Part shown: positions 8,239-46,474 of the stretch, piece by piece
Numbering within the stretch: position 1 is the first letter of the stretch
Layout of the letters: the number at the start of each line of letters is the position of its first letter
Virus record (IMG/VR): IMGVR_UViG_3300029922_000004
From: a virus
DNA: 64,000 nt
Direction: 5' to 3' (one strand)
Notes under the pieces: model-generated
What the model was told of the DNA's origin: nothing
Database searches by the model: none
What the model saw: only the letters and a program-made list of their open reading frames with translations
Made by a program: the position numbers and the translations under genes

Positions 8239-11175
8239 ATGGATAAAATGAAATTTAACGCCTTGGAAGAAATGGCGAACTTTACCTTTACCTCAAAATA
8301 TGCAAGATATGATGAAAAAAAACTCCGTCGGGAGACATGGGAAGAAACAATTAGCCGCGTTGAGAAGATGCACCTCAAGAAATTTAAGTTTTTATCAGAA
8401 CCAGACAAACAAGAAATAATTAAGGCTTTTGATTTTGTTAGAGAAAAAAAGGTAAGCCCCTCAATGCGTTCGGCCCAATTTGGTGGTAAAGCCATTGAGC
8501 AACATAACGCCAGAATCTACAATTGTGGGGTTAGACATATTGACTCTATACGTTCTTTTGCTGAATCATTTTATATTCTTCTATGTGGAACTGGAATTGG
8601 ATTTGGTTTGAATAAATATTTTCTTGGTCGTCTCCCCGACCTAGTAAATGAAAATGACAAAACTGGCTCTGTTCTTACTTATCCCGTCCAAGACTCAATA
8701 GAAGGATGGGCTGATTCTTTAGAGGCTTTATTAAATTGTTATTTTAAAAACACAGCCTATTCTGGAAGGAAAATCGTTTTTGATTATAGCAAAATCCGTC
8801 CGCGCGGCGCACCGCTTAAAACTGGCGGTGGGAAAGCCCCCGGATATAAGGGTTTGAAAAATGCTCACAAGAAAATCAAAATACTTTTGGACGCTATTAT
8901 AGAGGATAAACATCAAACCCGCCTTAAAACCATTGATGCTTATGATATTTTAATGCATATGAGTGATGCAGTTTTATCGGGCGGTATCAGACGTTCTGCT
9001 TGTTCTGTTATTTTTGATGCTGGAGATGAGGATATGATGAACGCCAAAACTGGTAATTGGTTTAAGGATAATCCTCAACGAGCCAGAAGTAATAACTCTG
9101 CAATTATCATTCGTGGCAAAACAACCCTTAAAGAATTTAAAACGCTTATAGGAAAAACAAAAGAATTTGGAGAACCGGGATTTATTTATGTGGAAAACGA
9201 GCAGCAATTATTAAATCCATGTCAGCCAAAATGGGCAAAACTTTTGACCCAAAATGGTATCAAAGAATTAAAAGATGTTAATATTGGAGATGAAATTTGG
9301 TCTTCTGAGGGTTGGACTAAAATTGTCAAAAAATGGTCAACTGGTGTTAAAAAGGTCTACGAGTATAGAACGACAGCGGGAGTTTTTTATGGAACCGAAA
9401 ATCATAAATTAATTTCTAATGGACAAAAGATTGAAGCCAAAGATTGCGAATCTATTGATATTTTAAGTGGAGAATATAAGTCAATCTGTGTTTTAGATAC
9501 TCAAGATATTATGGACGGACTGGTTTTTGGAGATGGGTCGGTGCATGAGGCAAGTAATAATTTAGTTCATTTGTGCTTGGGAGAAAATGACCACGACTAC
9601 TTTAAAAGTGAGGTGGCGGATTTTATCATAAAACACAGACCGGGATTACACGATTTTGCTTATCAAGTCAAAACTACCATTACTCACGATGAAATTCCAA
9701 AAACCTATAATCGTAGTATCCCAGATAGATTTTTTTATGGTAGTTATACCAAAAGGTGTTCATTTTTACGAGGGCTTTATTCTGCCAATGGGAGCATTTG
9801 TGGAAATAGAGTTACACTCAAGGCATCGTCTTTTAAAGTTATTGAACAGGTTCAAACAATGTTATCTTCTCTTGGAATCAAATCATATTATACGACTAAT
9901 AGACCAACCCAAGTTGAATTTTCAAATGGTATTTATGAGTGCAAACAGAGTTACGATTTAAATATTTCGACTGACCGAGCGAAGTTTCAACAAAATATAG
10001 GTTTTATACAGGGATATAAAAACGAAAAATTGTCGAAAATCATCAATTCGACTACTCTAAAAAATAAAGTAAAAAATAATTATGATGTTGTTTCTATTAA
10101 TTTGGTCTCGGAAGAGGAAGTTTTCGATATCACCGTAGATAATCCATCTCATACTTATTGGACGCAGGGTTGCAATGTATCAAACTGCTACGAAATTTCA
10201 TTCATTCCAGTAACATCAGACGGAAGAACTGGATACCAGTTTTGTAACCTGACTTCTATTAATGGAACTAAAATAACATCCCTACAAGATTTTAAAGACG
10301 CTTCTTGGGCGGCTTCTTTAATAGGAACTCTGCAAGCCGCTTATACTTCATTCCCATATCTAGGACACACCTCTGAAGAACTGTCTCGTGAAGAAAGCCT
10401 TTTGGGAGTGAGTATAACAGGAATGTTTGACTCGCCGGAAATACTTTTTAATGAAAAACATCAAAAAGAAGCCGCTAAAGTAGCGGTTGATACAAATAAA
10501 ACTTGGGCTAAAAAAATCGGCGTCAATCAAGCCGCTAGAGTAACGTGCGTTAAACCAGAGGGAACAAATAGCATAGTATTGTCGGCCTCTTCTGGAATTC
10601 ATGCCCATCACGCTAAGAAATATTTCCGCCGGATACAAGTTAATAAAGATGATAATATTTTTAAATTTTTTAAACTATACAATCCGCACGCTTGCGAAGA
10701 AAGTCAGTGGAGCGCAAATAAAACCGACGAAGTAATTACTTTTCCTATTGAAGTCCCCGCAACTTTTAAGGTCAAAAAAGATTTGACCGCCATCGAACAT
10801 CTCAAATTAATAAAACTTACCCAAGAAAACTGGGTTCAGACTGGGACGACAGAAGCGAATAAAAAACCACTTCATCATAGCGTATCTTGTACTGTAATGG
10901 TAAAAGATAATGAATGGGAAGAAGTAACCAAGTATCTTTTCGAAAACCAAAAAGACTTTACAGCCGTTTCATTATTACCTTATTCTGGCGATAAGATTTA
11001 TAAACAAGCACCAATGGAAGAAGTATCGACCCCAGAAGATGAAATTAAATTTAATGAATTAATCAAAAATTGGACTCGTGTGGATTATAAAAAATTGCAG
11101 GAGGAAGACGATGCGACATTACATTTGGCAGAGGCATCATGTCAAAATGGAGCGTGTGAATTAACCAAGATTTGA
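8239..11175 (+). CDS. nrdJ: Class II (adenosylcobalamin-dependent) ribonucleotide reductase containing an intein
   Basis: SPSMRSAQFGG, YNC, GGIRRSA, NP(intein)CYEI active-site motif, TCVKPEGT, C-terminal CQNGACE. Confidence 0.92.
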   Translation: MDKMKFNALEEMANFTFTSKYARYDEKKLRRETWEETISRVEKMHLKKFKFLSEPDKQEIIKAFDFVREKKVSPSMRSAQFGGKAIEQHNARIYNCGVRHIDSIRSFAESFYILLCGTGIGFGLNKYFLGRLPDLVNENDKTGSVLTYPVQDSIEGWADSLEALLNCYFKNTAYSGRKIVFDYSKIRPRGAPLKTGGGKAPGYKGLKNAHKKIKILLDAIIEDKHQTRLKTIDAYDILMHMSDAVLSGGIRRSACSVIFDAGDEDMMNAKTGNWFKDNPQRARSNNSAIIIRGKTTLKEFKTLIGKTKEFGEPGFIYVENEQQLLNPCQPKWAKLLTQNGIKELKDVNIGDEIWSSEGWTKIVKKWSTGVKKVYEYRTTAGVFYGTENHKLISNGQKIEAKDCESIDILSGEYKSICVLDTQDIMDGLVFGDGSVHEASNNLVHLCLGENDHDYFKSEVADFIIKHRPGLHDFAYQVKTTITHDEIPKTYNRSIPDRFFYGSYTKRCSFLRGLYSANGSICGNRVTLKASSFKVIEQVQTMLSSLGIKSYYTTNRPTQVEFSNGIYECKQSYDLNISTDRAKFQQNIGFIQGYKNEKLSKIINSTTLKNKVKNNYDVVSINLVSEEEVFDITVDNPSHTYWTQGCNVSNCYEISFIPVTSDGRTGYQFCNLTSINGTKITSLQDFKDASWAASLIGTLQAAYTSFPYLGHTSEELSREESLLGVSITGMFDSPEILFNEKHQKEAAKVAVDTNKTWAKKIGVNQAARVTCVKPEGTNSIVLSASSGIHAHHAKKYFRRIQVNKDDNIFKFFKLYNPHACEESQWSANKTDEVITFPIEVPATFKVKKDLTAIEHLKLIKLTQENWVQTGTTEANKKPLHHSVSCTVMVKDNEWEEVTKYLFENQKDFTAVSLLPYSGDKIYKQAPMEEVSTPEDEIKFNELIKNWTRVDYKKLQEEDDATLHLAEASCQNGACELTKI
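9220..10185 (+). mobile_element. Intein (322 aa) with LAGLIDADG homing endonuclease, inserted at the RNR active-site cysteine
   Basis: Starts CQPKWAKLLT after NP; block B GTENHKL; DIMDGLVFGDGS and FLRGLYSANGS; ends VFDITV...NVSN followed by +1 Cys. Confidence 0.9.
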
Positions 11176-11363: not shown

Positions 11364-11379
11364 GTGTAATAGAATTTAT

Positions 11380-11751
11380 GGGGCCGAAAGGTTTCGACAT
11401 TCGTTATTTGAAATATGGAGCAAGTCTGAGTGTTGGTGGCTCAGTAAAAACCAACAAAAAACTTAATTGCCAACGCAATCAAGAGTCTGGCCTTCGTCGC
11501 TTGTATGAGCTTCGACCGGCAAGAAGTCATGGCGTAAACTACGCCGTCCGTTCTACTCTGGAAGTCTGATAAAGAAATAGAGCGTAATCATTGGACAAAA
11601 AACATTATTATCCGTTGAAATGTTAAAAAATAATGGATTATGGGTGGTGAATTTTTCAATTAGTATATCCATCCGAAATAAAAAGTTGATAAACTTGTAG
11701 TTGCCGTATTTAGGATAAGGTCTGCACCCCGCTTCGATGCGGGCGGCTCCA
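11380..11751 (+). ncRNA. ssrA: tmRNA
   Basis: 5' GGGGCCGAAAGGTTTCGAC pairs with 3' CGGCTCC-A (G3:U70); pseudoknot 1 CTGAG/CTCAG plus TGTTGG/CCAACA; GCAAGT/ACTTGT helix; TAATT-GCC resume context; T-arm CCCGC-TTCGAT-GCGGG; CCA not encoded. Confidence 0.93.
11469..11537 (+). other. tmRNA tag reading frame ANAIKSLAFVACMSFDRQEVMA*
   Basis: In-frame translation from resume codon GCC at 11469 to TAA at 11535-11537. Confidence 0.75.
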
Positions 11752-11798
11752 TCATCTTTTCTTTTGAACTTTATCGTTGCTGGCGACTCTAATGTATA

Positions 11799-12894
11799 AT
11801 GACTAAAACTACTCAAGACGCCGACCTAAAAAATCAAATGGTAGAGGAGGCTTTACTAATTCTAAATTCTGTCGGTTTCCTAGAGAAACAAATCAATGAC
11901 AAATTCAGTCTTCTTGATGAGGCAATTAATAATAAATTATATAAAGAAGCCGAAATCCTCGAACGTCAAATCCGCGCCCTAGTGAAGAAAATCGGGCGGG
12001 AAAACATTAATATGGACATCTTTATGCTAAAATACACTACTATAGTGCATGAAAAAGAAAAATTGGTATATCATAGTGAACGCGCATAATTCATTTTTGT
12101 ATGGCTCATTCCCCCGCACCAAGGACGGTAAAACGGCGGCAGTAGCGTATAAGGACGAACTTAAGAAGAAAAATAAAAGTTTAAAACTCGTAATAAAATG
12201 AACCACAACGTCAAAGCCCGTGCCCGGATACAAATTACCGTGGAGATAGATTCAGAGTCCCCTTGGGGAGCGACATCGGTTATAGGTCAATTGTATGACC
12301 AAGCGAGTAAGGAAGCGGTAGAGAAACTGATGGGTGTAATACGAAAACAAATTCCTACCGCCAAAATCATTGGAGACCCGAAGGTTATTAGCGTTATCAC
12401 AGACCCAGTATGAGTTGCTCCTGTAACCCCGAAAACCCCCAAAAGAAAGCAGCCTTGGAGTTGATTAACCAAATTATCATCCTTGCCCAGATTGAAGACA
12501 AAGCCTTCCGCGACTTAAAGAGGCAGGGAAACAATAATAATGTATTACCCGCCGGAATCTCGCCGGTGGAGTTTCATTTAAAGAGTTTGAAGGAGTTAGT
12601 GGAGAAAATATGATTAACGTTTCCTATATAAAATCCTTATTTTTTATTCATCAGTCGCTTAAAGTCCCTATTACAGCGTCCATTCATTGCTCCCTTTTTA
12701 AATACAAAATCGACACAGAAATCAAGGATGGCGTCTTAGAAATTTTTTATAACGATTATAAAATCTGGCGGGAGTCACTCGTCGCGGAGCCAAACTTTTT
12801 TGGCGTTGAAACTTGCAGCGAAATCGCGAGGATTGTATCGATGATAGACGCGGGGGATATGCAATGGAAGTCTCGGTGTAGATTTGAGGTTTAG
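11799..12894 (+). CDS. Run of short hypothetical ORFs (11799-12089, about 12046-12201, 12198-12413, 12410-12613, 12610-12894)
   Basis: Co-oriented ORFs, mostly with ATGA-type overlaps; no recognisable motifs. Confidence 0.55.
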
Positions 12895-22525: not shown

Positions 22526-22604
22526 GGGGAATGGGATTGCCTTGGCGTGGTCGCCGCACTTGCAATGCGAATACAGACGAGTTCGACGCTCGTATTCTCC
22601 ACCA
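22526..22604 (+). tRNA. tRNA-Ala (TGC)
   Basis: GGGGAAT/ATTCTCC acceptor with G3:U70, A73, CCA; anticodon loop CT-TGC-AA; T-arm ACGAG-TTCGACG-CTCGT. Confidence 0.88.
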
Positions 22605-22605
22605 T

Positions 22606-22690
22606 CGTAGTTTGAGATAGCGGCAATTCTAGTACGCTGTAAACGTACCGCCTTCGGGCTTCACTCGTTCGAGTCGAGTAACTACGACCA
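22606..22690 (+). tRNA. tRNA-Tyr (GTA) with C1:G72 and long variable arm
   Basis: CGTAGTT/AACTACG-A-CCA; GTACG-CT-GTA-AA-CGTAC; GCC-TTCG-GGC variable arm; ACTCG-TTCGAGT-CGAGT. Confidence 0.9.
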
Positions 22691-22747
22691 CTTTTCGCAA
22701 GAGGATAGAATCGCTTGCCCGACGCAAGGAATTGCGTCTCTCTTTTA

Positions 22748-22824
22748 TCAGGTGCGTATAATAACGGCTAATTTCTCAGTTTGTGAAACTGACTAACCGA
22801 GGTCGGCACTCGGCCACCTGACCA
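22748..22824 (+). tRNA. tRNA-His (GTG), atypical
   Basis: TCAGGTG/CACCTGA-CCA; TCAGT-TT-GTG-AA-ACTGA; T-loop GTCGGCA; U-1:A73 instead of G-1:C73. Confidence 0.8.
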
Positions 22825-22939
22825 TTTAAAATTTGTCGCATGGTTGCGGTACGACAAAGCGGAGAAGTAAGTTAGTCGCGGTGAGAGGTTTACTGGTTTA
22901 GTCCCAGAAAAATCAGCGATTTCCGGTGTAATTCTTCCT

Positions 22940-23080
22940 ATGGAATATACGCCCAATACCCCCGAACAAAACGCGGAATATTTTGAAAGCCAAGACCATA
23001 AGACATGGCAGAAATTGGCCGGATTAAACGACTACTCCCCCGATGGGATTCAGGAAACTGAACCACACTACGCAGAATGA
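22940..23080 (+). pseudogene. N-terminal fragment of a 2H phosphoesterase (Acb1/T4 57B-like)
   Basis: MEYTP...DYSPDGIQETEPHYAE*; ETEPH resembles the first 2H motif; stop overlaps the ATG of 23077. Confidence 0.55.
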
Positions 23081-23514
23081 GGGCTGAGAAAACTCGGCTG
23101 ATACATGCTGGCTCCGATGACGATTGGAAATGGGGTGATTTAGTTTACGGGTTTTTAATGGCCGACTTTAAAACACAACCGCTCGAAAGTTTTTTAGAGA
23201 ATCAGGAGAGTTTAAACTTCACGCTGGGAGTAGTTAGCCGTTTTGAATGTCCTGATTACGACGTTTTGAAAATCGAGTCAAATTGTGACGCCGCGCAGCA
23301 GTTACATTATAATTTAAAAAATAATTTCCGCGATTCGATAGCGACCAGTTTTCCGATTTATCACCCACATTGTACGCTTGGTTACGTTAAAAAAGGCGCA
23401 CACCCAGAATTAGATGGGCATTCGGCCTTCGCGGGGAAGAAGTTTTCTGTAAGCTCTCTTCTCTACTCCCCGCCGGATAGGGCTGGAAGAAAATATTTGA
23501 AATTAAGAAAATAA
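23077..23514 (+). CDS. C-terminal part of a 2H phosphoesterase (Acb1/T4 57B-like)
   Basis: LVYGF...FTLGVVSRFECPDYDVLKI...IYHPHCTLGYVKKG (second HxT motif). Confidence 0.7.
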   Translation: MRAEKTRLIHAGSDDDWKWGDLVYGFLMADFKTQPLESFLENQESLNFTLGVVSRFECPDYDVLKIESNCDAAQQLHYNLKNNFRDSIATSFPIYHPHCTLGYVKKGAHPELDGHSAFAGKKFSVSSLLYSPPDRAGRKYLKLRK

Positions 23515-23529
23515 GTGTAATATAATCGT

Positions 23530-23919
23530 ATGGAAATCTCAACCGCGAAAATAATCTGTCAGTGTGATTCATGTAAGGCGACTTTGAAAAAAGACGACGG
23601 CGACCAAGATAAGTTTATCAAAGCCACTCTCGAAAATGGTCGCGGAAAGAATCAGGATTATTTCTACTGTGATGAGGAATGTTTACGGACTCATCTTAAT
23701 GCTCGCGCGAAAAGAAATCGTTCCCGCGCCTCTATTATTGAAATAGAGTTCGATATTCCCGCAAAATTAAAAGCTACAGCCTCACTCGCAAAATGTTCCA
23801 GATGTGGAACTATTGCCAACATCGCCACCCAACCAGAAATTTGCATGGGCGCGGTCAAGTGCGAAAAATGCGGCAATCCCGTAACGCAAGCAACGGCATT
23901 GGAAACTAATCCTCGATAA
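23530..23919 (+). CDS. Double zinc-finger hypothetical protein
   Basis: CQCDSC...CDEEC and CSRC...CEKC. Confidence 0.65.
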   Translation: MEISTAKIICQCDSCKATLKKDDGDQDKFIKATLENGRGKNQDYFYCDEECLRTHLNARAKRNRSRASIIEIEFDIPAKLKATASLAKCSRCGTIANIATQPEICMGAVKCEKCGNPVTQATALETNPR

Positions 23920-23926
23920 TTTTTAT

Positions 23927-24002
23927 AGATGCTTGATGTAGCGGCTCTGCATGGTTCTCTTTGAAAGAACACGTTTTGGCTCGACCCCAAAAGCATCTTC
24001 CA
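23927..24002 (+). tRNA. tRNA-Gln (TTG)
   Basis: AGATGCT/AGCATCT-T-CCA; GTTCT-CT-TTG-AA-AGAAC; TTTGG-CTCGACC-CCAAA. Confidence 0.82.
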
Positions 24003-24006
24003 TTTC

Positions 24007-24082
24007 GGACTTATGGTGAAAATGAATATCGCGCTAGGTTTCTACCCTTGAGTTTCTGGTTTAATTCCAGATAGGTCCACCA
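24007..24082 (+). tRNA. tRNA-Arg (TCT)
   Basis: GGACTTA/TAGGTCC-A-CCA; CTAGG-TT-TCT-AC-CCTTG; TCTGG-TTTAATT-CCAGA. Confidence 0.85.
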
Positions 24083-24134
24083 TTTGCACCAATTTCTCCT
24101 TGACAAATCCCGAAAACTCCTTTACTATTGAATT

Positions 24135-24281
24135 ATGAAAGAAACAGCAACAGAACTTGAATATTTGTCGTGGTTCCGCTGTAACGCCGATTTCGGCCCC
24201 GCCGACCAAGATGTAATTGATGACATGAATCGCCAGTTCAAAGAGGAAACTGGCAAGGAACTCCCAGAAGGATGGGAATGA
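24135..24281 (+). CDS. 48-aa hypothetical protein (MKETATELEYLSWFRCNADFGPAD...) under a leaderless-type promoter
   Basis: Translated by hand; TTGACA 24100, TACTAT 24123, ATG 6 nt downstream. Confidence 0.55.
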   Translation: MKETATELEYLSWFRCNADFGPADQDVIDDMNRQFKEETGKELPEGWE

Positions 24282-24285
24282 TTTA

Positions 24286-24366
24286 CAACGAGTGACCTTA
24301 TTGCGAACGGCACAGCATACGGATTTAAACCCCGTGGTTTTGGGAGTCCGAGTCTCCTCTCGTTGA
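24286..24366 (+). tRNA. tRNA-like element, anticodon TAA (Leu), atypical or pseudo
   Basis: Perfect CAACGAG/CTCGTTG acceptor plus A73; ACGGA-TT-TAA-AC-CCCGT; GGGAG-TCCGAGT-CTCCT; over-long linker before the D arm, no long variable arm, no CCA. Confidence 0.5.
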
Positions 24367-24371
24367 CTTTT

Positions 24372-24460
24372 GGAAAATGAACCAAGCAGGGTCTTGGAAC
24401 GCATTGCTAATGCGATTGCTCCTTAACTGGGGTTGCCTTCGAGTGGTACTTTTTCCGCCA
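24372..24460 (+). tRNA. tRNA-Ser (GCT)
   Basis: GGAAAAT/TTTTTCC-G-CCA; CGCA-TT-GCT-AA-TGCG; long variable arm GCTCC/GGGGT; TTCGAGT loop closed by C:G. Confidence 0.8.
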
Positions 24461-24503
24461 TCTTTTTTCTTGACATTCCACGAAACTTCTGGTAAAGTTG
24501 GGT

Positions 24504-24689
24504 ATGGAATATCTCAAACACTCCGACCTCCACTTGGTTAAACCGCGCTTTCGTCACCTCGTCGAAGATTCTTGGCGGGCGGGGCATGAAGTTCCCTACG
24601 GCGTCATCTATTTGAGTGACAAGCCCCTTTGCCAAAAAGAGATAAAACACGCAAAGAAAATTATTAAAAAATATAAAATTTCGGACTAA
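24504..24689 (+). CDS. Small hypothetical protein
   Basis: ATG 5 nt after TAAAGT -10 box of a TTGACA promoter. Confidence 0.5.
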   Translation: MEYLKHSDLHLVKPRFRHLVEDSWRAGHEVPYGVIYLSDKPLCQKEIKHAKKIIKKYKISD

Positions 24690-24690
24690 T

Positions 24691-24767
24691 GGTGCTGTCG
24701 CCTAATTGGAATGGCTCTCCCGTCCTAAGGGAATACAATGCAAATTCGATTTTTGCCTGCACCACCA
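24691..24767 (+). tRNA. tRNA-Arg (CCT)
   Basis: GGTGCTG/CTGCACC-A-CCA; TCCC-GT-CCT-AA-GGGA; GCAAA-TTCGATT-TTTGC. Confidence 0.8.
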
Positions 24768-26136: not shown

Positions 26137-28041
26137 ATGGATTTCAAAGACATTCAAGCCAAGCGTCAAAAACTTGCTGACGCCAAGGTTTATCTTAAAT
26201 CATTATTTATTGGTCTCGACGACATAATTGACCAGATTATTGACAATATGGAGGCGTGGTATTTAATGCCTGACATGATTAACCGTCCCATTATCATAAA
26301 TCTTTGGGGCCTGACTGGCGTGGGTAAAACCGATTTGGTTCGCAAACTCGTTAAATTCTTCAAATTCACGGATAAGTATCTCGAAATTCAAATGGATACA
26401 AAATCTACCTACCACAAGTCAATCAAGTCAATTCTTTTAGACAGCAATATCGAAGAAGGAGAGGCGGGGGTTATTCTATTGGACGAAATTCAGCGTTTTC
26501 GCTCTATTGACGACACTGGCAAAGAAATTTTTGATAAAGATTTCCAAGATGTCTGGATGCTTCTCTCCGACGGAAAGTTTAGCGGCACCAGCGCAAAATC
26601 AGAACTCATTGAAGAAGTAATGAATATGATGTATTCTAAAGAACTTAAATTAAATGGCAATAACGACGAAGAGGATGAATTGACTGGTATTAAGAAACAG
26701 AATACCGGCAAAAAACTCAAACCCCACAAATTGAAATTCAAAATGGGGATTTACCGCGCGAAACATTTAAAGAAACTTGCTCGCCTAAAGGAAAGCGTCG
26801 AAGAGATTATGGGCTGGAATGAAGACATTGTTTTAGACAAACTCACCGACTTAATCAAGAATGGTTCAAATTCAGACTTTGAAGTGGACTATAGCAAGTG
26901 TCTTATTTTTGTCAGCGGGAATATTGACGAAGCCTATGCGATGTCAAATATGGTCGAAGACGCGGATATTGACGCGAATACTCTTCACGCCCATTCTAAA
27001 AAAATCAACGTCATTAACATCAAAAAAGCCCTTCAAAAACGCTTCAAACCCGAACAAATTGCCCGCTTCGGCAATACTCATATTCTATATCCCTCCCTTA
27101 GTTCGGAGAATTATCGGACTCTTATCAATAAATGCCTCAAGGAAACACTCGTTTTTGCTAGTAACTATTTGAAAATTAGCAAGGTTGAATATGAGGATAG
27201 TATTGTTGATTTCATTTACAGGAACGGCGTCTATCCCGCGCAGGGAGTTAGGCCAGTTTTTAGCACAGTGAATAGCATATTTAATAATACGATACCCAAG
27301 ATTATCCTTTATAGTAAAGAAAATAATCTCCGCGCGGTGAAACTTGCGATTATTGATAAAACCATTCTCGTTATTGAGGGAACGAACTTTAGACTTTCGC
27401 TCAATGGAGTCTTGGATAATATTAAACGGGACATTAATGATGACAAGAAAACGTTAATCAGTGTTCACGAATGCGGCCACGCGATTGTTTATGCGTATTT
27501 ATTTGGCGTCGTCCCGCAAGAAATAAAAAGCTCAATATCTTCATTTGAGGGCGGTTATACACTTAGCAATAAACTAATCGGTTCCAAGCAGCAAATATTA
27601 AATAATACTGTTGTTCGTTTGGCTGGTCAAGCGGCGGAAGAAATCGTTTTCGGGGAATCCTACAAAAGCAACGGAGTGGGAAGCGACATTAACAAGGCCA
27701 CGTCTGATATAATGACGATGTTGCGTAGGCATGGATTGGGGAAAAATATATCCCTTACTGTTTCTGCCAACCACGAGGAATCGTCAACAGCAAATGTAAA
27801 TGCCGCAACATCAGAACGCGAATGCGAAAAACTCTTAATCAAGGCTCGGACACAGGCCATCAAGATTCTCCGCTCATTCGGACGATTACTCAAAGAGACC
27901 TCTACCGAACTTTTCGATAAAGGAAGCATTGAACCAAACAAATTTCAATCACAACTCGCCAAGCACGGAATTAATGCAAAAATTGTAAGCCCCGAAGTGG
28001 AATTGACCGTGGATTATAAAGGCTTATTGAAGAGATTTTAA
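26137..28041 (+). CDS. Soluble AAA+ ATPase fused to an M41 (FtsH-type) zinc peptidase domain
   Basis: Walker A GLTGVGKT, Walker B ILLDE, HECGH zinc motif, LAGQAAEEIVFG and GVGSDINKAT as in the FtsH protease domain; no TM segment. Confidence 0.85.
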   Translation: MDFKDIQAKRQKLADAKVYLKSLFIGLDDIIDQIIDNMEAWYLMPDMINRPIIINLWGLTGVGKTDLVRKLVKFFKFTDKYLEIQMDTKSTYHKSIKSILLDSNIEEGEAGVILLDEIQRFRSIDDTGKEIFDKDFQDVWMLLSDGKFSGTSAKSELIEEVMNMMYSKELKLNGNNDEEDELTGIKKQNTGKKLKPHKLKFKMGIYRAKHLKKLARLKESVEEIMGWNEDIVLDKLTDLIKNGSNSDFEVDYSKCLIFVSGNIDEAYAMSNMVEDADIDANTLHAHSKKINVINIKKALQKRFKPEQIARFGNTHILYPSLSSENYRTLINKCLKETLVFASNYLKISKVEYEDSIVDFIYRNGVYPAQGVRPVFSTVNSIFNNTIPKIILYSKENNLRAVKLAIIDKTILVIEGTNFRLSLNGVLDNIKRDINDDKKTLISVHECGHAIVYAYLFGVVPQEIKSSISSFEGGYTLSNKLIGSKQQILNNTVVRLAGQAAEEIVFGESYKSNGVGSDINKATSDIMTMLRRHGLGKNISLTVSANHEESSTANVNAATSERECEKLLIKARTQAIKILRSFGRLLKETSTELFDKGSIEPNKFQSQLAKHGINAKIVSPEVELTVDYKGLLKRF

Positions 28042-28110: not shown

Positions 28111-29187
28111 CTAGGCTTGCACCAAAGACGCTAATCCACGTCTTAAAATATTACGAGCCGCGTTAATGTCACGGTCGATTTTGTTTCCACATCCACAATT
28201 CATCATTCTATCGTCCAGCGACAGATTGTGGATTTTTCCACACGAATTGCACGTCTTGGAAGTATTGCTTGGATTCACGCGGATGAGTTTCCTACCGGCA
28301 CTTGCAGCCTTGTAGGACAGCATCTGCGCGAATTGCGCCCAAGATACGTCGTTATACGTTCTATTGATATTCCGAATGTCACCACTGGAAAGTTTTTTAA
28401 TGTCCAAATCCTCGATTACAACTATGCCATTTTCGGCGATGAGACGGTTGGAAAGTTTGTGGTTGAAGTCGAGACGTTGGTTAGTGATTTTGCGAAAAAT
28501 ATTACCGACGACGCGGCTGCGTTTTTTTCTGGCAAGACTGCCCTTTTCTTCTTTATCGCGCCTAGACGCGGCTTTCTTTATTCGTTTTAGGTTAAGGCGT
28601 AGAAATTTCGGAGACTCAAACTTTTCTCCTGCGGAAGTTGTAACGAAAGTTTTCAGCCCGAAATCCAATCCGATTGCGTCTTTACTGGGCGTATAAATCT
28701 TCATAGGTGCGTCAACCGTAAAACTTGCGAAGAATTGCCCGCTTTGATATTTTACAGTGACGCGGGAATATTTTGTCAGAGTTCGGTGAGAAATCATTGG
28801 GATATTACCGACGTGCTGGATGTAAAGTTTGGAGCCTATCGCCTTTGCCCCGTCACCCGCCGCAAATTCTATTGACGAAAGCATTTTTTTGAAGCGCGGG
28901 AATCCGGGTTTCTGTCCCAATTTTACGCGGCGGAAGAAATTTTGGAAGGCTTTATCCAAGCGTCTTACCGTTTGTTGCAATGACGAGACATTGGTCTTGT
29001 CTTTAAATTTCGGAACGTTGGCTTTAATCTGGTCTATCGCTGACGGTGAAGATTTGGTTTTCTCATAAACGTCAATTCGTTCTTGTCGGCAAAAATTGTA
29101 GAGTTCACAATGCTTTGCCATTTGCCGGAAGAGTTCACGTTTCTGATGCTTCGACGGATAAATACGAAATTTTATTACGGACTTCAT
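28111..29187 (-). CDS. tnpB: TnpB RNA-guided endonuclease
   Basis: KFRIYP start; RuvC D (IGLDFG), E (VIEDL), D (DRDINAARNI); zinc ribbon TSKTCNSCG...CGCG. Confidence 0.93.
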   Translation of the reverse strand: MKSVIKFRIYPSKHQKRELFRQMAKHCELYNFCRQERIDVYEKTKSSPSAIDQIKANVPKFKDKTNVSSLQQTVRRLDKAFQNFFRRVKLGQKPGFPRFKKMLSSIEFAAGDGAKAIGSKLYIQHVGNIPMISHRTLTKYSRVTVKYQSGQFFASFTVDAPMKIYTPSKDAIGLDFGLKTFVTTSAGEKFESPKFLRLNLKRIKKAASRRDKEEKGSLARKKRSRVVGNIFRKITNQRLDFNHKLSNRLIAENGIVVIEDLDIKKLSSGDIRNINRTYNDVSWAQFAQMLSYKAASAGRKLIRVNPSNTSKTCNSCGKIHNLSLDDRMMNCGCGNKIDRDINAARNILRRGLASLVQA

Positions 29188-40258: not shown

Positions 40259-40756
40259 ATGGTAGCCGATAACCCTCACTGTCCACCCCCGCCGATGTCA
40301 CAAAAGGAAAAACCTTTAGAAAAAGAATCTAAACATTCCAATCCTAAAGATATTATAGGTTCGGATAAAATTCCCCTCCATCTTTGGCCTGAATCTGCAT
40401 CCATATTGGGATGTCTAGGACTCGCTGAGGGGATGTTAAAATACGGAAGGTCTAACTTTCGGGCGGTTGGTGTTCGTGCATCAATTTATTATGATGCTCT
40501 ACGCCGCCATACAATTAAATGGTTTGAAGGGGAAGACGTTGATGAGGAGTCGGGATTACCCCACTTGGCTCATGCGTTGGCTTGTCTCGCTATTCTTGTG
40601 GACGCACAATGCGCGGGGAAACTCAATGATGATAGAGTAATTAAGGGTGGGACTCTTGAACTATTAAAAGAAATGACCCCGCACGTTAAACGCCTCAAAG
40701 AAAAGTATAAGGATAAAAATCCGCGCCATTATACAATAAACGACAATATAAAATAA
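40259..40756 (+). CDS. dATP/dGTP diphosphohydrolase-like protein (DUF5664)
   Basis: NPKDIIGSDKIPLHL...G.LKYG.SN.R...DAL.RH...W.EGED.DEESGLPHLAHA. Confidence 0.85.
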   Translation: MVADNPHCPPPPMSQKEKPLEKESKHSNPKDIIGSDKIPLHLWPESASILGCLGLAEGMLKYGRSNFRAVGVRASIYYDALRRHTIKWFEGEDVDEESGLPHLAHALACLAILVDAQCAGKLNDDRVIKGGTLELLKEMTPHVKRLKEKYKDKNPRHYTINDNIK

Positions 40757-42201: not shown

Positions 42202-42726
42202 TTGCGCGGGCAAGTTGCCACAGTATTCTCGGTAAAATCAAATTCCCCGAATAATATCGGGGAACCAATTTTTATGCACGTCGGAAACTACCACGACTAC
42301 AAAAACTTTGACGCTCTCCGCGTTGAAAAGTTTCCTATTACCTTGTGGGACAGGATAAAATACAGCCAAGCGGGTTGTGGAGCAAATGTTTTATCAAATA
42401 TTTTGGGGGAATCACCCTTAAAGTTTAAAAAATCTAACAATCATTACCCCGATTCCTACATGGTCAAACAACTCCGCAAGCATGGAGTTTCGTGCCATAA
42501 AATAACTCAATCCAATCTAACCAACACAAAAGAGGCTTATCTAAAATTGGATGATAGAAATGTTTTAATGTTTTGTCTCCTATTAAAGCGCGGCGAGGGG
42601 TCTTGGGGACTTTTATATAATCAAACATTTTACCACAACCAAGAGTCAAGCCAGTTGCATGTATGGAATTTAATTAACTCTCCTATAAAATCCCTTTTCT
42701 GCCTTCACAAAAAGGAGTGGGCTTAA
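42202..42726 (+). CDS. Hypothetical protein, possibly papain-like fold
   Basis: QAGCGANVLSNIL and later YHN; start uncertain. Confidence 0.35.
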   Translation: MRGQVATVFSVKSNSPNNIGEPIFMHVGNYHDYKNFDALRVEKFPITLWDRIKYSQAGCGANVLSNILGESPLKFKKSNNHYPDSYMVKQLRKHGVSCHKITQSNLTNTKEAYLKLDDRNVLMFCLLLKRGEGSWGLLYNQTFYHNQESSQLHVWNLINSPIKSLFCLHKKEWA

Positions 42727-42969
42727 TATGGTTACTGACCTCAAAAATAATATCCTTAGAGTCCTACAAGTAGGTCAAGAAGTTAAAGTAGAGACCTGTT
42801 TTGGGGTGGTTAAGATGGCAGTTATTAAATGTGATGTGGAAACAGCGACGGCAGAAACTCAAAATGGAAAAATGGCTGCGACGTTATTTATGAATGAAGA
42901 TAATCTTTGGGACTCAAATGTATCCTATGATACAAAAGCCATTTGTAGAGTAATGGTTGGGGATTAAAT

Positions 42970-43413
42970 ATGCCTCGCGAAACAAAATTCAGAATTTGGG
43001 ATACCACAAATCATTGTTTTGTTTATTCCGATGAAAAAGAGGGTAATTGTTTCTTGATTAAGCTGAACGGTGAAGTCACCGATGGAAACGGCAGACATTA
43101 TGACGAAACTTATCCCATCCAGCAATTCGCGGGGATTAAGGATAATGTTGGCGCAGATATTTACGAAGGGGATATAGTAAAAGTCTACGATTCTCGAAAC
43201 CTCTTTCAAATAAAATTTGGTAAAGTAACCCGCTCGGTTGAAGCCCATACCCGTAAAGAAAATTATTTGTTGGAGCTTAATACTTTCTTCTTTGAGTCGC
43301 TAGAAAACAAGCTGCCATTCTTTTCTATTATCAACAATGAGCGCGGGGAACATGATTTGAAGGGAACAAGGATAGTAGGAAATATATTTGAAAATCCTGA
43401 ATTATTGAAATAA
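42970..43413 (+). CDS. YopX-family protein
   Basis: RETKFRIWD...QQFAGIKDNVGADIYEGDI...IVGNIFENPELL. Confidence 0.85.
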   Translation: MPRETKFRIWDTTNHCFVYSDEKEGNCFLIKLNGEVTDGNGRHYDETYPIQQFAGIKDNVGADIYEGDIVKVYDSRNLFQIKFGKVTRSVEAHTRKENYLLELNTFFFESLENKLPFFSIINNERGEHDLKGTRIVGNIFENPELLK

Positions 43414-43414
43414 T

Positions 43415-43816
43415 ATGCCAGCCGTCGAGGATAATAAACAGCGAGTGACAATCCTTTCTCAAAAGGATTTGGAAGTCTCCTACTTTTGCGGCTCTGGTGC
43501 TGGCGGTCAAGCAAGAAATAAAGTCGCGTCTGGTGTCCAATTGCGTCATTTAGAGTCCGGCGCGAGCGGTAGGGCTTGCGATAGCCGTTCGCAACACGAT
43601 AATAAGGTTTCAGCATTTAAACGTCTCTGCGCCGACCCACGGATGAAATTCTGGCTTGCTAAAAAGGTTCACGAGGTCAGACTGGGCGAAACAATAGAAA
43701 AGACAATAGAAGCGGAAACTACACCAGAATTTCTAAAATACGAGGTAAAAGATGCCGATGGAAAATGGATAGAAGTTCCCGCCGATTACTTTGACAGCGA
43801 AAAAGCCACAAAATAA
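43415..43816 (+). CDS. Stand-alone GGQ release-factor-domain protein (peptidyl-tRNA hydrolase domain)
   Basis: DLEVSYFCGSGAGGQARNKVASGVQLRHLESG...RSQHDNK..AFKRL. Confidence 0.88.
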   Translation: MPAVEDNKQRVTILSQKDLEVSYFCGSGAGGQARNKVASGVQLRHLESGASGRACDSRSQHDNKVSAFKRLCADPRMKFWLAKKVHEVRLGETIEKTIEAETTPEFLKYEVKDADGKWIEVPADYFDSEKATK

Positions 43817-43817
43817 T

Positions 43818-44230
43818 ATGTTTAAAATAGACAAAAACAACCTTCCTAAAACCTTATTTGAGGCTATCGAGTTAATCGTCCGAGGGCTTAACGCCGAAGA
43901 GATAGAGTTTATTAAAAGTCAGAAAGACGCGGGGCTGATTCATCATACCGTCGGGATGTAACTCCGCAATGGTCTAGGGCTATGGGGAAAGAATAGTCCA
44001 ATAATCGAAGATGTTAAAAAGAAATATAAAATTTTTGGCCACCCAGACGATGTAAGCGGATTAATTTTTGCTGGCGTATTTTCTGCTGTAAAAGGAAAAG
44101 ACGTGGACAAGGCGTTGGAAAAAGAAGTTGAGAGTTATATCTCGCATTGGAAAAGACATGGGACAAATCCCGAAACCGGCGAAAAGATTAAAGGTTTTAA
44201 AGAGCCAAAATCTATGACTTTTACTATTGA
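43818..44230 (+). pseudogene. DUF6794-like gene with in-frame TAA
   Basis: Hand translation ...HHTVGM*LRNGLGLW...GHPDDVSGLI...; TAA at 43959-43961; frame open on both sides. Confidence 0.65.
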
Positions 44231-44261
44231 CAAAGAGGGAGAAATCAAGTATCTTTAGTGG

Positions 44262-45344
44262 GTGCAAATTGACCTCTCAACCATAGACCGCGACTCCTTC
44301 AATCTTAAAGAGGGGGTCGTCAATGGCCGCGAGGTTATCCTCATTAATCCAAAGGACTTTGCTTGTGTATGGTCTCGCCAAAACCTTAACCAGCGTTCAC
44401 TCATTGTAGATAAAAGCGGGAATATTTTATCACACGGACTGTTCAAATTCTTCAACTATGGTGAAAAACCTGACCTCTATCCTAACCCCGATAACGCTAA
44501 AGACGGAACATTGGTTGAAAAAATTGACGGAAGTTGTGTCCTTTTTGATTGGATTGACGGACTTAACGCGAGAACGCGCGGGACTTTATCGTATAAAACT
44601 TTAGTCAACGCCCCCGACTTTGACTTCGTTCTAAAAAAGTATCCTAATTTAGAAAATATAGTCCGTGCGAACCCTGACTATACTTACATCGCAGAAATTA
44701 CCACGCCCAATCAGAAAATCGTTTTGGATTACGGCCAAGAGCCAGAATTATATTACCTCGGCTGCATCCACAAAGAAACTGGACTCTATACCCCGTTTTT
44801 TGCTGATACCGATTACACGATAGATAAAATCGGCTGCAAAGTCCCCGCGATTTACGACCTCAAAGGCAGTCTCGCGGAAATCTACGAGCAGATTAAGATT
44901 TGGGAAAAGAAAGAGGGCGCGGTATTGGTTTATAATGACAATCAAAGCATGGTGAAATTGAAATGTCTTTCCTATCTTAAACTTCATTATTTTAAATCTA
45001 CTTGTAATTTAAATTCTTTATTGGATTTGTATTTTGAATGGTCATGTCCGCATATCCCCGATTTTCGTGATAAATTAGCGGCGAATTTCGATTTTGAATG
45101 CCTTACCCAAGCTTCTCCTTTGATAGGGAATATTCAAGATGCTATTGACGTGGCAGAGGATAAGATTATCGAATTTTGCATCATTAAGGATGCTAATCGG
45201 GATTTAAACCAAAAAGACTACGCCCTAAAGGTATTGGCGGAATATAAGGAAAATTCGTCTTATTTGTTTGAACTGCGGGCAAAGGGTATGCTATCCCCGA
45301 AGAGTCTGAGAAAACTGCTGGAAAAGGAGTTAGAATTAGTTTAA
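44262..45344 (+). CDS. T4 Rnl1-like RNA ligase
   Basis: FKFFNYGE, EKIDGS (motif I), TRGT, AEI, EGAV (motif IV), MVKLKCLSY (motif V). Confidence 0.85.
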   Translation: MQIDLSTIDRDSFNLKEGVVNGREVILINPKDFACVWSRQNLNQRSLIVDKSGNILSHGLFKFFNYGEKPDLYPNPDNAKDGTLVEKIDGSCVLFDWIDGLNARTRGTLSYKTLVNAPDFDFVLKKYPNLENIVRANPDYTYIAEITTPNQKIVLDYGQEPELYYLGCIHKETGLYTPFFADTDYTIDKIGCKVPAIYDLKGSLAEIYEQIKIWEKKEGAVLVYNDNQSMVKLKCLSYLKLHYFKSTCNLNSLLDLYFEWSCPHIPDFRDKLAANFDFECLTQASPLIGNIQDAIDVAEDKIIEFCIIKDANRDLNQKDYALKVLAEYKENSSYLFELRAKGMLSPKSLRKLLEKELELV

Positions 45345-45383
45345 TTGCTTGACAATCGCCGCAAATTCTGGTAATATTGTTAA

Positions 45384-45821
45384 GTGAAAATCAAGAAACT
45401 AATCCTTATCCGCCATTGTTCGGGCGCGGGGTCTTCGACTTTGGCTAAGTTTTTGTCAACTTATTTGGATTTTGGGATAGATGCTGGCGGTAAAGTGTGC
45501 CATTATGAGGCAGACCAATGGATGATGGACGCCGATGGGAATTATAAATTCGATGCTGTAAAATTGGGGTATTGTCACGCTCAATGCAGACACTCGACGG
45601 CCAAAGCAATGTTGAACGAAGTTCCGGCGATTATAGTTTCTAATACCTTTTCCCGCGAAAGCGAGATTGCGCCTTATATTGAGTTGGCGGAAATAAACGA
45701 TTATGAGGTTACTGTAATGATTTTGGAAAATCGTCATGGCAATAAGAGCGTCCATAATGTGCCAGAGGAGACTTTGCAACGCCAAGAGACAAATATTAAA
45801 AATAGTTTAAAATTAAGATAA
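45384..45821 (+). CDS. Polynucleotide-kinase-like P-loop protein (AAA_33-like) with degenerate Walker A
   Basis: LILIRHCSGAGSST; EADQW; IIVSNTF; HGNKSVHNVPEETLQRQ. Confidence 0.75.
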   Translation: MKIKKLILIRHCSGAGSSTLAKFLSTYLDFGIDAGGKVCHYEADQWMMDADGNYKFDAVKLGYCHAQCRHSTAKAMLNEVPAIIVSNTFSRESEIAPYIELAEINDYEVTVMILENRHGNKSVHNVPEETLQRQETNIKNSLKLR

Positions 45822-46474
45822 TGCTTAAAACCCTAAAATTTAACCACGACAGTAATCAGAAAGTTTATTTTTCCTCTGATTATCACGCCAATCATTTGCA
45901 GCCGTTTGTTTGGCAGACTCGCGGCTATAACTCGCCGGAAGAACACACCAACGCCCTCATTGAGATTACAAATAACATCGTCAAAGAGAACGACATTTTC
46001 TTCCACCTTGGAGACCTTACCCTAAATACAAGCGAAGAACAGTTTGAAGATTTCATCAACAAAATTAACTGTAAGAACCTGTATAGCGTCTGGGGCAATC
46101 ACCCGAATCCGTCCGCGAAAATCTACAAGCGCGAAGTGGAATTGCAATTCAAACTAGACTCCACAAAATATGAAATTTATCCATTGAGATACAAGAATGT
46201 CATTTTCTTGCCTAACTATGCTGAATTGAGTATTAATGGTTTTTCTGTAATAATTTCCCATTACCCATTGCGGATTTGGAATTTCATGGCGCAGACTAAC
46301 TGTTTCTGCCTCAGCGGTCATAGTCATGGTAAAGACAAGGAAAGGCTAATTAGCAGCAATTCTGGACGCTGTTTGGATGTTGGATTTGATGTATTTAAAA
46401 AGCCCCTGTCTTTTGATGAATTAAAAGACATTATGGCCGCGAAATCCATCGTGAAACTGGACAATACACACTAA
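45821..46474 (+). CDS. Calcineurin-like metallophosphoesterase
   Basis: FSSDYHANH, HLGDL, WGNH, SHYP, GHSH, LDVG. Confidence 0.88.
   Translation: MLKTLKFNHDSNQKVYFSSDYHANHLQPFVWQTRGYNSPEEHTNALIEITNNIVKENDIFFHLGDLTLNTSEEQFEDFINKINCKNLYSVWGNHPNPSAKIYKREVELQFKLDSTKYEIYPLRYKNVIFLPNYAELSINGFSVIISHYPLRIWNFMAQTNCFCLSGHSHGKDKERLISSNSGRCLDVGFDVFKKPLSFDELKDIMAAKSIVKLDNTH

Follow-up and report, generated by a model that had tools for sequence, protein, structure and literature searches.

Cleavage of tRNA or rRNA is a common host defense, phages answer it with spare tRNAs and with RNA repair, and a phage factor that also cleared jammed ribosomes would, if it proved real, complete this picture of defense and answer. 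The window analyzed here, a stretch of 64,000 nucleotides (IMG/VR record IMGVR_UViG_3300029922_000004) from a 185,976-bp phage contig with a GC content of about 40%, raises the question of whether such a factor is coupled to repair, since seven tightly packed plus-strand genes in the interval of 42.7–46.5 kb include one for a 133-residue protein with the GGQ domain of peptide release factors and, farther downstream, those for an Rnl1-type RNA ligase, a small polynucleotide kinase-like (Pnk-like) P-loop protein, and a calcineurin-like metallophosphoesterase. No sequenced phage isolate proved to be a near relative when the region was compared with them by megablast. The initial annotation of this DNA read the four genes as one module that would rescue ribosomes and repair RNA in the manner of bacterial PrfH-RtcB2. 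Profile matches and motifs confirm all four proteins at the positions first assigned to them, and comparative evidence does not bear out the module. We think it probable that two separate neighbors lie side by side, a conserved repair cassette and an independent accessory mini release factor that arrived by insertion of a block of genes.

Whether the GGQ gene travels with the ligase was assessed in a census of GGQ loci drawn from IMG/VR and metagenome contigs and from look-ups of exact proteins; these reduce to 47 distinct groups, and in 20 of the groups at least 6 kb of sequence is available. In the IMG/VR scan a single-protein query returned no loci and an alignment-based scan returned seven, a 60-sequence alignment being too diverse for pattern searching. 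Hidden Markov models (HMMs) built from relatives of the ligase, kinase, and phosphoesterase matched all of their positive controls, and within the flanks of the 20 loci of at least 6 kb they found neither an Rnl1 ligase (0/20) nor the kinase (0/20), and the phosphoesterase at a single locus (1/20). The ligase profile PF09511 likewise matched nothing in seven whole GGQ-bearing records, among them a complete 72.6-kb phage, with the same search positive in three control phages, and in the reverse direction the RF-1 domain profile PF00472 was absent from all four whole genomes of Rnl1-bearing phages that were checked. No conserved protein partner of the GGQ protein was common to more than three of 28 locus groups, and the GGQ gene of the cluster C mycobacteriophages (205 records) is flanked by those for DNA polymerase III and RecA. 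A position next to an RNA-repair cassette is unique to the window among the loci examined, and the adjacency of GGQ gene and ligase, which recurs in no relative examined, appears from these genome comparisons not to exceed chance. The initial annotation had itself tied its proposal to the gene neighborhoods of phage GGQ proteins, and these hold no conserved linkage between GGQ and ligase, which by that standard refutes the module at the comparative level.

How the two came to be adjacent is indicated by the closest syntenic relative, the metagenomic contig L018, in which seven flanking proteins are 79–93% identical to those of the window. There, orf174 gives way within 25 bp to a DUF6794 gene and the Rnl1 gene, with no GGQ gene between, whereas in the window a 1.09-kb block separates orf174 from the DUF6794–Rnl1 pair. 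The block consists of orf79 (42728–42967, plus strand, from the list of open reading frames), a gene of the YopX family (42970–43413, plus strand; PF09643, E 2.2e-13), and the GGQ gene (43415–43816, plus strand). None of this has a counterpart at the corresponding position in L018, where the YopX-family gene is absent and orf79 finds no tblastn match, although the flanking orf174 is 85% identical. In the DNA alignment the breakpoint falls exactly at a TAATATG stop/start junction after orf174, and the block ends at the same motif (window 42722–42730 and 43812–43820; L018 about 9540–9570), which suggests the gain or loss of a cassette by recombination at gene junctions; apart from this short TAATATG-type junction, the flanks of the 1.09-kb block have neither direct nor inverted repeats of note. 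Judged by this alignment, the GGQ gene came to stand beside the repair cassette by local insertion and not as part of a linked system.

The surrounding DNA has been variable as well. Because the DUF6794 and Rnl1 products are 46–49% identical between the window (ligase at 44262–45344) and L018 (ligase at 10001–11089), as against 85–93% for the flanks, and because in the same variable zone of L018 the Rnl1 and kinase genes are separated by a gene (11364–12473) for an RlaP-type (RNA ligase-associated) nucleotidyltransferase that the window does not have at that position, we regard the locus as a mosaic hot spot, in which DUF6794 and Rnl1 seem, from their shared divergence, to have been exchanged as one unit. 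The GGQ gene had been placed one gene away from the ligase, which holds insofar as a single DUF6794 gene (43818–44258, plus strand; PF20594, E 7.6e-10) lies between them, with the qualification that this gene is split by an in-frame TAA at 43959–43961, across which the PF20594 match runs. The L018 ortholog, 46% identical, is intact at 142 amino acids and has Ser at the position of the stop, and the TAA of the window may reflect a nonsense mutation, a fault in the assembly, or readthrough. This in-frame stop sits directly downstream of a gene for a release factor-like protein.

The repair cassette itself is found in many phages. Its ligase (44262–45344, plus strand) scores 42.3 bits with PF09511 against a cut-off of 28.3, matches phrog_562 with an E-value of 7e-38, and carries nucleotidyltransferase motifs I, IV, and V as KIDG at K87, EGAV at E218, and KLK (K232-x-K234). 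The equivalog model for T4 Rnl1, TIGR02308, aligns over residues 54–338 with 70 bits against a cut-off of 242, and from these scores we assign the protein as a distant member of the T4 RnlA (Rnl1) family. The metallophosphoesterase (45821–46474, plus strand; PF00149, 28.3 bits against a cut-off of 21.5; phrog_547) has intact DxH, GD, GNH, and GHxH motifs at positions 20, 64, 92, and 166, and is likely an end-healing enzyme predicted to act on 2′,3′-cyclic or 3′-phosphate ends. Relatives of the phosphoesterase occur in 1,108 phage records and those of the kinase-like protein in 622. In Vibrio phage VF16 the order is ligase, kinase, phosphoesterase as in the window, in Aeromonas phage phiA009 it is phosphoesterase, ligase, kinase, and in the annotations of Escherichia, Klebsiella, and Pseudomonas phages the kinase adjoins an “RNA ligase” or a “phosphoesterase.” The phosphoesterase adjoins the kinase and the ligase in L014, L015, L017, and L018, and among the metagenomic relatives all three genes are kept both in L017, whose ligase is 59% identical to that of the window, and in L018, where the ligase, kinase, and phosphoesterase are 49, 86, and 93% identical. 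The GGQ gene was absent from each of the cassette neighborhoods examined (VF16, phiA009, the annotated phages, L017, and L018). This recurrence argues that ligase, kinase-like protein, and phosphoesterase are a conserved phage cassette for RNA end healing and sealing. Phage RNA-repair systems in which RNA ligases are found with polynucleotide kinases and with phosphoesterases, occasionally of the calcineurin-like type, have already been described (PMC7824862), and apart from the P-loop of its kinase-like protein, the cassette is an ordinary one of a known kind.

That P-loop is unusual. The assignment of the 145-residue protein (45384–45821, plus strand) as Pnk-like is upheld by its match to phrog_2071 (E 4e-35), by D44, which follows the P-loop in 94/94 aligned homologs, and by a lid-like ENRHGN motif present in 70/96; its AAA_33 match is weak, and its homologs carry PF13671. 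What the original assignment did not convey is that the P-loop reads RHCSGAGSST, which does not fit the Walker A pattern GxxGxGK[ST] in that the lysine, present in 90 of 94 aligned homologs, is missing. The variant, with His11 for the first glycine and Ser17 for the lysine, is common to two homologs, and because these two proteins are only 47% identical, we take it to be a maintained variant and not a product of decay. When the ligase, the kinase-like protein, and the phosphoesterase were each searched as single sequences against solved structures, nothing useful was returned.

The GGQ protein (PF00472, E 1.7e-14) matches phrog_3122 with an E-value of 1.1e-18, residues 8–120 aligning with profile positions 21–129 of 136, and its catalytic loop is intact, with GGQ at residues 30–32 and RSQxxN at 58–63. 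Across 60 diverse relatives G30, G31, and N63 are invariant and Q32 nearly so, as are, outside the catalytic loop, W80, E110, G116, and W118. An AlphaFold model of the protein has a mean pLDDT of 86.8, and its residues 8–102 superpose on domain 3 of RF1, RF2, mtRF1, and PrfH with Z-scores of 8–9, and on ArfB with a Z-score of 6.4. The NCBIfam models rank in a similar order (RF1 49 bits, RF2 48, PrfH 38, ArfB 29), all far under their cut-offs and in the catalytic core only. In the case of RF1 and RF2, only positions of about 201–283 are covered, and the 49 bits stand against cut-offs of 370–423; in the case of PrfH (TIGR03072, cut-off 166.65), positions 104–162 alone match, and in this comparison the N-terminal sensor, or decoding-center, domain of PrfH was not found; and in the case of ArfB (NF006718, cut-off 100), the match is to residues 12–45 alone. 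Against the sequences of solved structures the GGQ profile finds PrfH best, at 44.7 bits, with RF1 and RF2 at about 40, again over the catalytic core. The description of the protein as having neither an ArfB-type basic tail nor a stop codon-reading domain proved correct, with residues 75–133 carrying a net charge of −2, and the family as a whole has a mean net charge of +4 in its N-terminal part and −3 in its C-terminal part. The C-terminal 62 residues folded alone give a pLDDT of 88.5, and among 48,161 solved chains this subdomain found no structural match (best Z 2.5). The idea that it is a vestige of release-factor domain 4 was considered and set aside as unsupported, since it rests on topology only and the best chain match is the same Z-score of 2.5.

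The family to which the protein belongs is large, with 477 representatives at an E-value of at most 1e-10, and the best 150 of these are small proteins of 67–193 amino acids each, with no fusions. The window protein has hundreds of metagenomic relatives at 58–78% identity, with which it forms a separate, mostly metagenomic clade, and it is 36–40% identical to the RF-1 proteins of cluster C mycobacteriophages. Its profile matches place it in a large phage family of stand-alone “mini release factors,” PHROG 3122, that is annotated yet uncharacterized. Its predicted and most likely function is to hydrolyze peptidyl-tRNA independently of the codon and in this way to free ribosomes that have stalled in the course of infection.

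Where this family does recur is inside tRNA arrays or near transfer-messenger RNA (tmRNA) genes, an association that we describe qualitatively. A tRNA-Cys gene ends 8–10 nucleotides upstream of the GGQ reading frame in three loci, inside arrays of up to 12 tRNAs (L029, 7681–8164; L032, 9907–10390; L054, 839–1177), another locus (L030) has 10 tRNAs within 10 kb, and tRNAs are found also on the small GGQ contigs L039, L057, and L062. A tmRNA gene lies 1 kb upstream of the GGQ gene in L008 (3127–4860) and 7 kb away in L064/L065, and elsewhere in the genome in the large phage behind L002–L004 (the G003/G004 genome), in the phage of the window, and in the cluster C phages, whose genomes with the RF-1-domain protein encode tmRNA plus many tRNAs. 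RF-1-domain genes have been reported inside mycobacterial tRNA arrays (PMC5966550). In the window, the tmRNA gene (11380–11754, plus strand) is full length and scores 98.5 bits with Rfam RF00023, as had been claimed; the accompanying count of about 10 tRNAs was too high, since ARAGORN calls five (Ala, Tyr, Gln, Arg, and Arg, in a plus-strand cluster at 22526–24767), and the Rfam tRNA model gives an E-value below 0.1 for only two of the five. A gene for a B12-dependent ribonucleotide reductase (8239–11175) closely precedes the tmRNA gene and contains an intein with a LAGLIDADG homing endonuclease. Within the tRNA cluster, a 145-residue reading frame (23077–23514) bears a weak likeness to 2H (LigT-like) 2′,3′-cyclic phosphodiesterases (PF13563, E 2.1e-5, 25 bits against a cut-off of 27; TIGR02258, E 0.007) and may encode a further RNA end-healing enzyme.

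Taken together, the observations are best accommodated, in our view, by two independent functions. In the cassette, the phosphoesterase would remove a 2′,3′-cyclic or 3′-phosphate, the kinase-like protein would phosphorylate the 5′-OH, and Rnl1 would seal the nick, with broken RNA, most likely tRNA, as the target. The GGQ gene would have arrived within the three-gene orf79–YopX–GGQ block at a TAATATG gene junction, and its product would hydrolyze peptidyl-tRNA on stalled ribosomes independently of the codon and without depending on the ligase cassette; because its relatives recur in the company of tRNA arrays and tmRNA, it would form part of an accessory translation toolkit together with them. 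A looser common theme of GGQ protein and cassette, that of keeping translation running under attack, is plausible as a putative link between them. Several considerations weigh against this account. Large genome size confounds the association with tRNAs and tmRNA, which stands without a formal background control, and in the window itself 19 kb separate the GGQ gene from the tRNAs and 32 kb separate it from the tmRNA gene. Hydrolase activity is a prediction for every member of the family, and how a factor lacking a sensor would spare healthy ribosomes is unexplained. As the Walker A lysine is missing from the kinase-like protein, the 5′-phosphorylation step may not work as it does in T4. Finally, the variable site took up a GGQ gene in the window and an RlaP gene in L018, so it may attract accessories of translation and RNA repair in a nonrandom way.

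A wider proposal, which we advance tentatively as a possibility, is that mini release factors are a widespread class in which the C-terminal subdomain with its conserved W80, E110, G116, and W118 targets stalled ribosomes in a new way, acting alongside tRNA arrays and tmRNA when host defenses deplete or cut tRNAs. How a GGQ domain without a known sensor finds the right ribosomes is, in any case, the real question that this protein raises, and one unlikely answer is that it acts not on 70S ribosomes and instead on split large subunits that hold peptidyl-tRNA, as mtRF-R (C12orf65) does with MTRES1. This would account for the absent decoding-center sensor, it fits a protein that has neither basic tail nor codon-reading domain, and the GGQ protein does match C12orf65/mtRF-R (fold Z 7.5; sequence E 4e-8); however, the match to RF1 and RF2 is at least as good, and mtRF-R needs a partner protein, whereas the phage family has no conserved neighbor.

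Two other possibilities involve the transcriptional setting of the genes. A consensus scan finds promoter-like sites on the plus strand before the DUF6794 gene (TTGACA-N17-TAATAT, 43791–43819), before the ligase gene (TTGACA-N17-TATCTT, 44227–44255), and before the kinase-like gene (TTGACA-N17-TAATAT, 45349–45377), all of them pattern matches, and no terminator-like site between the GGQ gene and the ligase. With its gene among such early-type promoter-like sites, no evident specificity domain, and an in-frame TAA in the gene that follows, the GGQ protein might be an offensive or regulatory factor whose premature release of peptides shuts down host translation or tunes the termination of certain phage genes. 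We consider this improbable, since indiscriminate release would be equally harmful to phage translation, the recurrence of the family with tRNA arrays and tmRNA suggests that it supports translation, and the in-frame stop, being missing from the L018 ortholog, looks like a point mutation. That GGQ protein and cassette form one rescue-plus-repair system, with the GGQ protein first removing the peptide from a ribosome that a cut rRNA or tRNA has jammed and the cassette afterward mending that RNA, is very improbable, for although the genes are neighbors that run in the same direction, undivided by any terminator-like site, PrfH is the best solved-structure match of the GGQ profile, the insertion site in L018 likewise gained an RNA-repair accessory (RlaP), and a coupling of peptidyl-tRNA hydrolysis to phage RNA repair has been proposed with Pth2 as the hydrolase (PMC7824862), the linkage is absent from the 20 distinct loci, the seven whole records, the four Rnl1 phages, and L018, the ligase and kinase genes each have their own promoter-like site, and the proteins are a GGQ domain without the PrfH N-terminal domain, an Rnl1 and not an RtcB ligase, and a kinase-like protein without its Walker A lysine. 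No such coupled system is seen in the window, which instead draws attention to a large family of minimal release factors whose genes accompany tRNA arrays and tmRNA.

Other genes of the window lie outside these questions. An FtsH-like gene encoding an AAA domain plus an M41 protease (26137–28041) stands beside an IS605-type TnpB gene (OrfB_IS605 plus a Cas12f-like TNB domain; 28111–29187) on the opposite strand. Upstream of the locus, a gene at 40259–40756 encodes the N-terminal domain of a dATP/dGTP diphosphohydrolase of the MazZ/DatZ type (PF18909, E 5.5e-23), is 93% identical to its L018 counterpart, and hints, by its domain, that the dNTP pool is manipulated or that bases are modified.

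The locus can be set against several known systems. Closest to the GGQ protein are the stand-alone RF-1-domain proteins of mycobacterial tRNA arrays (PMC5966550) and the PHROG 3122 proteins annotated in cluster C mycobacteriophages as “RF-1 domain peptide chain release factor,” which belong to the same family, are likewise small and unfused, retain GGQ, and come from genomes with tmRNA and numerous tRNAs; the window protein differs from these relatives in belonging to its separate, mostly metagenomic clade and in having a repair cassette as neighbor. The class I factors RF1 and RF2 possess domains 1, 2, and 4 and a codon-reading loop, all of which are lacking in the 133 residues of the window protein. 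ArfB/YaeJ and ICT1 resemble it in size and as GGQ proteins that work independently of the codon, a function that is predicted for the window protein, but it has neither their basic C-terminal helix nor an ArfB-type insertion and its structural match to ArfB is the lower one. PrfH-RtcB2 (PMC9304027), the system on which the initial annotation drew, resembles the window in its RF1/RF2/PrfH-type GGQ domain and, as far as this one genome goes, in an RNA ligase encoded nearby, whereas the window has no PrfH N-terminal domain, no RtcB at the locus, and no conserved linkage. In the case of the cassette, the comparator is T4 Rnl1 with Pnkp, since the window likewise combines an Rnl1-family ligase with a 5′-kinase-like P-loop protein and a 3′-end phosphoesterase, although its kinase and phosphatase are separate small proteins, unlike in T4 Pnkp, and its phosphatase is not of the DxDxT type. 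Bacterial Pnkp is composed of kinase, metallophosphoesterase, and ligase domains (PMC3675462, PMC1920235), and the chemistry of its phosphatase module is matched by the metallophosphoesterase of the window, while with respect to both the T4 and the bacterial enzyme, the window lineage is set apart by the serine that replaces the Walker A lysine.

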